This document shows positions 56,875 to 57,787 of a DNA stretch of 64,000 bases, piece by piece (the first letter of the stretch is position 1; every line of letters begins with the position of its first letter). A program made the translations under genes and the position numbers. The DNA is taken from the NCBI GenBank assembly GCA_951406725.2, contig OX597834.1, positions 41,416,001 through 41,480,000 of the forward strand, in the 5' to 3' direction. Under the pieces are notes generated by a model. The model saw only the letters and a list, made by a program, of their open reading frames with translations, was not told where the DNA came from and did not search any database. The stretch comes from Octopus vulgaris. Taxonomy: Eukaryota.

Positions 56875-57787
56875 AGTTCAATATCACAATCAAGGAACGG
56901 CCATAATAGGCCATTCACCCACTAGAAATAACAGCCAAAAGCTTTAACCGCAAAATAACATTAATTCCGTAAACCAGGAGAAAATTGAAAAACATTTACC
57001 CTGTAATTTCTTAGACGATGCACCGTTTCATCTACCGTTTAATGGTAAATGAAACGGTGCATCGTCTAAGAAATTACAGGGTAAATGTTTTTCAATTTTC
57101 TCCTGGTTTACGGAATTAATGTTATTTTGCGGTTAAAGCTTTTGGCTGTTATTTCTAGTGGGTGAATGGCCTATTATGGCCGTTCCTTGATTGTGATGTT
57201 GAACTTAAAAATGGTTTATGACTATTTAATTTTTTCCCACTAGGCCGCTGGTGGCAAGAGAATTCTACAAAATTTTTTTGCCACCCTATATTGATTAATT
57301 ATGAATTTTCTGGTTAGTTCCGTAATGGAATCGGTGGCTTATATTTATTTGCTGCCGATAAATTTGGCGCGAGTGCGACGATTTGAAAATTTTAGGTCAG
57401 ATATTGCCTAGGTAGCAAGAGGAATGCCTCGTGAAAAATATCTGTTCCGACTTGGCTATTTCTTACTGATGAGTCTAAGGGCCTATGGTGGATTGGCTTG
57501 ATTTAATTTAATCAGGTTAGTTTACCATTAAACGGTAGATGAAACGGTGCATCGTCTAAGAAATTACAGGGTAAATGTTTTTCAATTTTCTCCTGGTTTA
57601 CGGAATTAATGTTATTTTGCGGTTAAAGCTTTTGGCTGTTATTTCTAGTGGGTGAATGGCCTATTATGGCCGTTCCTTGATTGTGATGTTGAACTTAAAA
57701 ATGGTTTATGACTATTTAATTTTTTCCCACTAGGCCGCTGGTGGCAAGAGAATTCTACAAAATTTTTTTGCCACCCTATATTGATTA
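56875..57787 (+). mobile_element. Non-coding Penelope-like pLTR / retrozyme-like element inserted in (TA)n
   Basis: Inverted 5' arm 56875-57049 against 57049-57205; direct repeats 57049-57297 and 57539-57787 (490-nt period); contains the hammerhead; flanked by (TA)n on both sides. Confidence 0.7.
57458..57564 (+). ncRNA. Type I hammerhead ribozyme with extended stem II
   Basis: Stem I ATTTCTTA/TAAGAAAT; core CTGATGA 57466-57472; stem II GTCTA...TAGAT enclosing a 19-bp hairpin; GAAA 57541-57544; near-palindromic stem III ACGGTGCATCGT; GTC cleavage triplet ending at 57556. Confidence 0.85.

Follow-up and report, generated by a model that had tools for sequence, protein, structure and literature searches.

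The window, by which we mean the whole 64,000-nt stretch of Octopus vulgaris DNA analysed here, carries at 56875-57787 an insertion that sits between two (TA)n runs and consists of a ~175-nt arm and a ~740-nt arm, joined head to head and made of one 490-nt unit. Its parts, with the structures assigned to them, are listed below; fixed ends 1 and 2 are the two positions at which insertions of this family recurrently stop.

56499..56875, no strand: left (TA)n target microsatellite (sequence)
56875..57049, - strand: inverted arm, unit positions 455-490 and then 1-139 (sequence comparison, locus L001)
57044..57049, no strand: head-to-head arm junction, with short microhomology, GGTAAA against GGTAGA in the unit (sequence, match overlap)
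57050..57066, + strand: 3' half of a hammerhead (GAAA, palindrome, GUC ending at 57066) with no core of its own (sequence, cofold)
57067..57556, + strand: complete 490-nt monomer, from cleavage site to cleavage site
57155..57243, + strand: conserved helix P1 (57155-62 with 57236-43), which encloses fixed end 1
57164..57197, + strand: hairpin followed by CCT-NN-ATTG at fixed end 1 (unit ~131), putative reverse transcription start site 1
57250..57302, + strand: hairpin followed by CCT-NN-ATTG at fixed end 2 (unit ~236), putative reverse transcription start site 2
57454..57483, + strand: possible pseudoknot of GGCU (57454-57) with GGCC (57480-83) in the internal loop of stem II (inspection)
57458..57564, + strand: type I hammerhead with an 8-bp stem I, core CUGAUGA, 5-bp stem IIa, 19-bp stem IIb, GAAA and a 12-nt palindromic stem III
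57557..57787, + strand: partial terminal unit (positions 1-231) that stops at fixed end 2
57786..57884, no strand: right (TA)n target microsatellite

A direct repeat with a spacing of 490 (57033-57302 and 57523-57792, 98% identity) bears out the claim of a first-pass annotation of this DNA that the 3' half of the ribozyme recurs 490 nt upstream, with its GTC ending at 57066. The inverted copy that the annotation placed at about 57005-57049 is also there, but its real extent is larger, 56875-57049; its outer end lies 8 nt past fixed end 1, at unit 139. The terminal partial unit and the full unit have a private variant at unit 192 in common. The monomer has a G+C content of 36.9% and a fold z of -5.2, and the reported absence of an open reading frame holds, the longest stop-free frame in a trimer of the unit being 47 codons.

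Several other features lie in the window. A second, unrelated hammerhead element occupies 32930-33322 between TA runs, with its core at 33035 and a 55-nt stem II insert; it has an inverted arm, unequal ends and a tail of ~150 nt, and relatives with the same layout occur at loci L058 and L206. Probable exons of an intermediate-filament gene lie on the + strand at 34515-34967, which matches Pfam Filament at E = 1.2e-6, below the curated cut-off, and at 36869-37201. On the - strand, a short frame at 14001-14405 resembles what we take to be the zinc-finger and GIY-YIG start of Penelope-like elements (PLEs) of Naiad type, and a fragment at 19360-19683 presumably resembles a mariner-type transposase; neither has a Pfam match. 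A very abundant SINE-like repeat lies on either side of the region, its two copies (56104-56498 and 58996-59395) being 2.9 kb apart, and 184-bp two-copy tandems are found at 52496-52860 and 53571-53948.

A hammerhead with a palindromic stem III

The hammerhead anatomy at 57458-57564 is real, and all the parts named in the annotation (stems, core, GAAA and GUC site) are in the sequence where it had placed them. Stem I is formed by ATTTCTTA (57458-65) and TAAGAAAT (57557-64); the core CTGATGA (57466-72) leads into GTCTA (57473-77), which pairs with TAGAT (57536-40), and is followed by GAAA (57541-44), a 12-nt palindrome (57544-55) and a GTC ending at 57556, with the cut predicted after C57556. 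The extension of stem II, said to pair fully on the + strand only, does so: 57485-503 and 57510-28 pair at 19 of 19 positions, six of them as G-U, and the fold energy is -21.7 kcal/mol on the + strand against -5.3 on the - strand. The CUGANGA / GAAA / UH core, the three helices and the open helix I are those of type I. The region 57450-57575 folds with z = -4.6, and a hammerhead descriptor matched twice in the window (33035 and 57466) compared with 0.055 times per dinucleotide shuffle, none of 200 shuffles yielding a match as good as that at 57466.

To call this a textbook hammerhead, as had been done, is nevertheless an overstatement, because pair 10.1-11.1 is G-U and an Rfam scan of the window at the gathering score returned no matches. 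In related subfamilies the pair is A-U, A.A or A.C rather than the canonical G-C; mismatches there have been reported in natural hammerheads (PMC3088659; PMC7229834). A core pattern with short gaps overlooked the 57466 motif, and its two matches were at chance level. Nor does the length of stem II, described as unusual, set this ribozyme apart. Its insert is 68 nt, with the 19-bp distal helix, and long stems II are common among the hammerheads of this genome, inserts of 39-61 nt being found in 9 of 15 distinct descriptor matches across 60 PLE-bearing loci.

In the isolated motif the lowest-energy fold differs from the catalytic fold, and the active fold of the monomer lies 4.4-8.3 kcal/mol above the minimum free energy (MFE). 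Stem III has 4 bp in the window copy and is a 12-nt palindrome in all four subfamilies, and in all four a double hammerhead comes at or below twice the monomer MFE; these calculations predict that the ribozyme performs best when two hammerheads join through the stem III palindrome. Stem III is unformed in the circular monomer (probability 0.01). An inhibitory pairing of core GAUG with CAUC dominates the isolated motif; its probability in the circular monomer is 0.04, and we dropped it as a candidate off-switch for that reason.

Across 12 sequences from the four subfamilies, 96% of cells are paired, compared with 26-47% when the partners are slid. Nine pairs of the distal helix vary on one side and one on both, and both-side changes occur in 3 of 31 pairs, which among four related subfamilies is no better than in shuffles (258 of 500); the structural support therefore comes mainly from kept pairing. 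A pseudoknot between stems I and II is possible. Its equivalent in subfamilies C and D would be AGGUU with GACCU, and a program search found it for B, C and D and chose another register for the window copy. This putative helix of 4-6 bp, between the strand 5' of stem I and the internal loop of stem II, shows one compensatory change and a matched 2-nt shift between A/B and C, and pseudoknots of stems I and II are common in natural hammerheads (PMC4209133, PMC7229834, PMC3088659).

The annotation had regarded the sites at 57066 and 57556 as a pair that releases monomers from this locus. When the two pieces are folded alone, the downstream core folds onto the 57066 site through the palindrome (cofold MFE), so that release is conceivable. 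In a read-through transcript, 57050-57079 is predicted to be fully paired with the inverted arm. Because the 57066 site lacks its own core and is paired in this way, the locus is probably a product and not a source, that is, a dead-end copy, and the role proposed for the two sites probably does not suit it. It has one complete hammerhead, short of the two or more consecutive complete hammerheads by which Li et al. (2026) define active loci; many other loci of the family have them.

A dispersed family with two fixed ends

A DNA search of the animal's own 2.8-Gb genome gave at least 228 matches (40 of 996 candidates scored), mostly 98-99% identical, dispersed over many chromosomes and often tandem, in arrays of up to 18 units with the motif in each unit. 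Exact cleavage-site motifs number at least 2,877 (987 of GUC type, 1,690 of GUA type and 200 of subfamilies C and D), and reversed-pattern controls gave none. The arrays are both tandem and head-to-head and lie mostly inside (TA)n; identity to the window unit is ~91% for subfamily B and ~70% for C and D. The annotation had said that a single-copy sequence without conserved stems would speak against its reading, and what we find is a multi-copy family in which the stems are kept. Short tandem units that each carry a type I hammerhead, the lack of coding capacity, low G+C and dispersed mobile copies are the hallmarks of a non-LTR retrozyme.

At one position (L122:3852), the GUA type makes up ~99% of the summed contig depth in two DNA-like runs (X16 and X17). 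The depth there exceeds that of the unique flank more than 10,000-fold, far above the assembly counts of 1,690 GUA and 987 GUC motifs, and should not be read as a copy number; the GUA type may exist in large arrays missing from the assembly. Contigs also cross the unit in four runs whose RNA type is a guess, and such contigs carry no information on ends, strand or circles. In two of these four the unique flank is uncovered and the ratio of the unit to an abundant neighbouring repeat is lower than in the two DNA-like runs, with the same guess as to type.

To map the fixed ends we used 81 insertions from subfamilies A and B, of which 34 had been selected for their BLAST score and 47 according to their position along a single chromosome. 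The outer ends lie at unit ~131 or ~236, ~105 nt apart. Where both ends could be classified, in 54 of the 81 insertions, there was one of each type in all 54 (P = 6e-17 if ends were independent at 0.5). Among the other 27, 26 have one classed end and one has none; the ends left unclassified comprise 5' truncations, errors of clustering and, in the window, the left end at unit 139. Subfamilies C and D follow the same rule in nine of nine insertions with two called ends. This strict pairing of two fixed ends is the 'tail' signature of Penelope, the tail being the ~105 nt between the two putative start sites; a head-to-head inverted copy with a tail at one end, together with a target duplication or an AT-rich target, is what characterises PLE insertions. 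Helix P1 shows one G-C to A-U change across subfamilies.

The targets fit the same pattern. A TA run stands at 148 of 162 insertion borders; L122 has a 14-bp target duplication and an empty allele, in that contigs from two other runs, which bear different organism labels, pass from one flank to the other with no element between; and L040 has a 15-bp duplication, found by eye. An automated search of 52 loci gave clear 14-15-bp repeats only at L122, L136 and, by eye, L040, and was mostly uninformative because the flanks are pure (TA)n. Inverted repeats with TA flanks would also be left by a DNA-level fold-back or satellite element, similar to a MITE, in which the hammerhead is incidental. Such an origin is extremely improbable, given that the arms are unequal and end at different positions, that inner breakpoints are random, that the G-U-rich pairing holds on one strand only, and that core and palindrome are kept across subfamilies.

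The annotation also suggested a retrozyme or an element akin to the terminal repeat (pLTR) of Penelope, and a search for copies, arrays and linked open reading frames. The family is indeed multi-copy, tandem and recently mobile, with conserved stems and a Penelope-type footprint; what does not stand is its identity as the pLTR of a full element. No PLE open reading frame is joined to the unit (tblastn, 87 loci and the window), the few PLE matches being separate neighbours, and a motif from a 2-kb contig that runs past the ribozyme had no genome matches. In the loci examined the unit is therefore not the pLTR of a full element, for want of an attached reverse transcriptase (RT) frame.

The same result bears on the idea that the copies are stumps of autonomous full-length PLEs whose tandem growth came later by unequal crossover, the route proposed for vertebrate retrozymes (bioRxiv 10.64898/2026.07.22.740005). 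One array (C10; L004, L013 and L005) would suit it, since its 18 units carry periodic second-order variants; having no inverted arm, it suggests some later duplication at the DNA level. Against this route, tandem units occur in both arms between two ends defined by reverse transcription, the arms share private variants, and most single-copy variants have not been homogenised. A pLTR-stump origin of the arrays is thus largely refuted, and we hold it to be highly improbable.

Template and mobiliser

What remains to be explained is the kind of RNA from which the arms were copied. We compared 129 full units, taken from 64 insertions of subfamily A. Units of the same insertion differ by 0.35%, units on opposite arms by 0.37% and units of different insertions by 1.7%. 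Nineteen variants are private to one insertion and occur in every copy there that covers the site, in 12 cases on both arms; one variant fixed in this way is found in the window's two direct copies. A further 104 private variants are confined to a single copy and may be later mutations or assembly errors. Among 55 insertions we count 39 majority haplotypes, and in 6 of 32 multi-unit insertions a unit departs at a common variant site. Minor variants recur between insertions in 12 of 124 cases, mostly as G>A or C>T between unrelated haplotypes. The 99 inner (5') breakpoints are evenly spread over the unit; six lie 15 nt or less from the cut site, slightly more than the 2-3 expected. From these haplotypes, variants and breakpoints, each insertion appears to have been written from one monomer whose cut site was traversed again and again. 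That both arms have a single haplotype and that breakpoints are even favours rolling-circle reverse transcription of one monomer, and a circle appears to be the simplest account of the pattern. Twin priming on one linear RNA in the manner of L1 was considered and rejected, as the inner breakpoints show no concentration at the start site of the partner (31-nt windows contain 6 and 8 of the 99, where ~6 are expected).

Two linear templates deserve consideration. In the first, an uncut multimeric transcript of a tandem donor array would serve the PLE directly, with the hammerhead dispensable or acting elsewhere and no circle formed. The anole PLE mainly used uncut RNA in vitro (PMC11167929), the active fold of the monomeric ribozyme is costly by the 4.4-8.3 kcal/mol given above, and fixed ends, target duplications and even breakpoints would be expected equally. 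This template would, however, require donors already homogeneous for each of the 39 haplotypes, and it leaves unexplained both the new variants found in all units of both arms and the retention of the ribozyme across 30% divergence. Minor variants are also not passed between insertions of the same haplotype, one pair at haplotype distance 0 sharing one. We consider an uncut multimer unlikely.

In the second, a single cut linear monomer would be re-entered by the RT through end-to-end template jumps, with the outcome of a circle and no ligation. It would account for the single haplotype per insertion and for the slight breakpoint excess near the cut site (6 of 99), and some junctions (L038, L048, L159) have short templated jumps. 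But most units meet at the cut site in gapless alignment, breakpoints are not concentrated there, and related animal retrozymes are mostly circular in vivo (PMC7229834). For these reasons a linear monomer seems to us quite unlikely.

Candidate enzymes are present in the same genome. A search for GIY-YIG domains gave at least 148 matches (150 of 6,136 candidates scored), and Pfam identifies numerous intact RT-GIY-YIG frames of 781 aa; their CX4CxxC linker, on which the typing is based, is that of Neptune/Nematis elements. These intact elements also target (TA)n; their two 3' ends are separated by 40 nt, and a tail-plus end is combined with a tail-minus end at all three inverted loci seen (L076, L078 and L088). 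No terminal sequence common to the unit and a PLE was found among the sampled families (60 PLE-bearing loci; 150 of 6,136 GIY-YIG candidates scored), where the sole strong match (L053) is a nested 53-nt fragment of the unit, and inspection of the ends of these families did not reveal the CCT-NN-ATTG motif. From the footprint, we infer that the mobiliser is a Penelope-type enzyme.

Some of these elements are of interest in themselves. A Neptune-type PLE of ~5.2 kb (L084:1389-6610, also L071-L087) is apparently active, with copies ~99% identical, and targets (TA)n; an upstream open frame of up to 479 codons precedes its 781-aa RT-GIY-YIG frame, and its pLTR has no CUGANGA core, although a degenerate U3-A8 core is possible by eye near L084:6500-6545. 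A second Neptune-type family has a minimal hammerhead in its pLTR, intact at L210:3160-3210 and with a changed core at L088:6100-6150. Further distinct hammerhead families lie in PLE flanks (L054, L059, L074, L079, L083, L200, L202 and L206), several with a long stem II and a palindromic stem III.

Taking the evidence together, we think it probable that the window copy is an insertion of a non-autonomous retrozyme and that a Penelope-like enzyme, probably of Neptune type, copied it from a monomer RNA predicted to be circular. Tandem loci would be transcribed, probably by Pol II, since the sense strand has three T5-T7 runs. Adjacent hammerheads are predicted to pair through the palindromic stem III and to cut out 490-nt monomers, which a host ligase could then close into circles, as PMC7229834 suggests; by analogy with the retrozymes described there, ligation by the host tRNA ligase is more likely than ligation by the ribozyme. 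The PLE endonuclease would make a cut staggered by ~14-15 nt in AT-rich DNA or (TA)n, as the footprint indicates. Each 3' end of the target would then prime reverse transcription, a step modelled on PMC11167929, one at unit ~131 and the other at unit ~236, in keeping with the end pattern. Both reactions would circle the same RNA for a variable length, and the cDNAs would be joined head to head. The window copy, with its arms of 175 nt and ~740 nt, would be such a product.

We put forward more tentatively, at somewhat less than even confidence, a specific form of this process: a dimeric Penelope-type RT binds the two signals of hairpin and CCT-NN-ATTG, 105 nt apart, on one ribozyme-made circle and primes each from one end of the staggered cut. 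If so, twin-primed rolling-circle copying would account at a single step for the PLE tail, for arms joined head to head and for tandem arrays, and the family would show directly, from the genome, that retrozyme arrays in animals are made from circular RNA at the moment of insertion and not by later growth as satellites.

Some observations count against the circular template. Ribozyme cleavage was not needed for insertion by the anole PLE in vitro, uncut RNA being the main substrate (PMC11167929), and eight of nine Xenopus retrozyme dimers were uncleaved in vitro (bioRxiv 10.64898/2026.07.22.740005). In our own data, the modest covariation, the six deviating multi-unit insertions and the slight excess of breakpoints at the cut site weigh against the main reading, as do the 104 single-copy private variants, the missing DNA similarity to the sampled PLE families and the lack of CCT-NN-ATTG at the ends of those inspected.

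Relation to known retrozymes and Penelope-like elements

The element belongs to the known animal non-LTR retrozymes, and the family itself is new. The annotation's phrase 'probably undescribed' therefore holds for the family and not for the class, which has been described already. In the literature searched, largely outside subscription journals and exclusive of Repbase and Dfam, we found no published description of the octopus family, or of strict end pairing combined with single-haplotype arrays. Molluscs are not among the species sampled in the available text of bioRxiv 10.64898/2026.07.22.740005; the main text of PMC7229834, as far as available, includes mussel and has no match to 'cephalop'. 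Recently active Penelope-like families number 31 in an octopus repeat annotation of 2026, in whose available text the word 'ribozyme' does not occur (PMC13282606).

In coral, mussel and axolotl, non-LTR retrozymes are expressed in the form of circles, which tRNA ligase probably closes; PLEs have been proposed as their mobilisers, an unknown LINE or PLE being suggested to reverse-transcribe the circles (Cervera and de la Pena 2020, PMC7229834). Li, Clavereau and Pollet (2026) linked Xenopus retrozymes to pLTRs, followed by local tandem growth, and left mobilisation open (bioRxiv 10.64898/2026.07.22.740005). The octopus family resembles the animal retrozymes in its tandem repeats of low G+C without open reading frames, in its one type I hammerhead per unit, in the range from dimers to long multimers, in its structured monomer and in the co-existence of PLEs. 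Its unit is 490 nt, compared with 170-400 nt in PMC7229834 and 51-972 in bioRxiv 10.64898/2026.07.22.740005. It differs in its (TA)n targeting, head-to-head arms, two fixed ends and single-haplotype arrays, none of which we found in the available text of these two papers, whereas the sequence link to pLTRs drawn for Xenopus was not found for the octopus unit.

The ribozyme itself has close parallels in the dimeric hammerheads of newt satellite 2, axolotl retrozymes and the minimal hammerheads of PLEs (PMC4209133, PMC7229834, PMC3088659), with which it shares a palindromic stem III and loop 3, a non-canonical base of stem II and a better predicted fold as a dimer; minimal dimeric hammerheads have been described in PLEs (PMC4209133). 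It departs from them in having a stem III of 4 bp with a 12-nt palindrome and a 68-nt stem II insert with a 19-bp distal helix.

The layout of the insertions is that of endonuclease-bearing PLEs with an inverted pLTR (Arkhipova et al. 2013, PMC3846280; Craig et al. 2021, PMC8557442; PMC11167929). An inverted copy with a tail at one end is the published PLE arrangement (PMC3846280, PMC8557442); the tail has been attributed to RT starts at two places within the element, each strand of the target being cut and extended (Frangieh et al. 2024, PMC11167929). Both groups have short target duplications and targets that are AT-rich or (TA)n, and presumably also the two internal starts and the extension of both strands. 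Unlike these PLEs, the octopus family has no open reading frame and has multiple whole units in both arms; its tail is ~105 nt rather than 30-40; its target duplications are 14-15 bp where readable, compared with 8-10 in PMC3846280; and its insertions combine the two end types without exception (54 of 54), whereas the available text of the PLE papers has 'often' or 'optional'. Non-autonomous Chlamys PLEs, MRC1 among them, are generally similar in their 3' ends to an autonomous family (PMC8557442), whereas we found no parent here, and most Chlamys lack canonical hammerheads (PMC8557442), whereas the ribozyme is conserved in the octopus family.

Considered as a ribozyme or a repeat family alone, the element is ordinary for this genome. 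It supplies a 490-nt substrate with two defined start signals, together with intact candidate enzymes in the same genome. Its footprint is measurable, in the strict pairing of two ends, the one haplotype per insertion, the even breakpoints, the target duplications and the empty allele, and it favours PLE-driven copying of a monomer, at a point where the movement of retrozymes in animals is otherwise a hypothesis.
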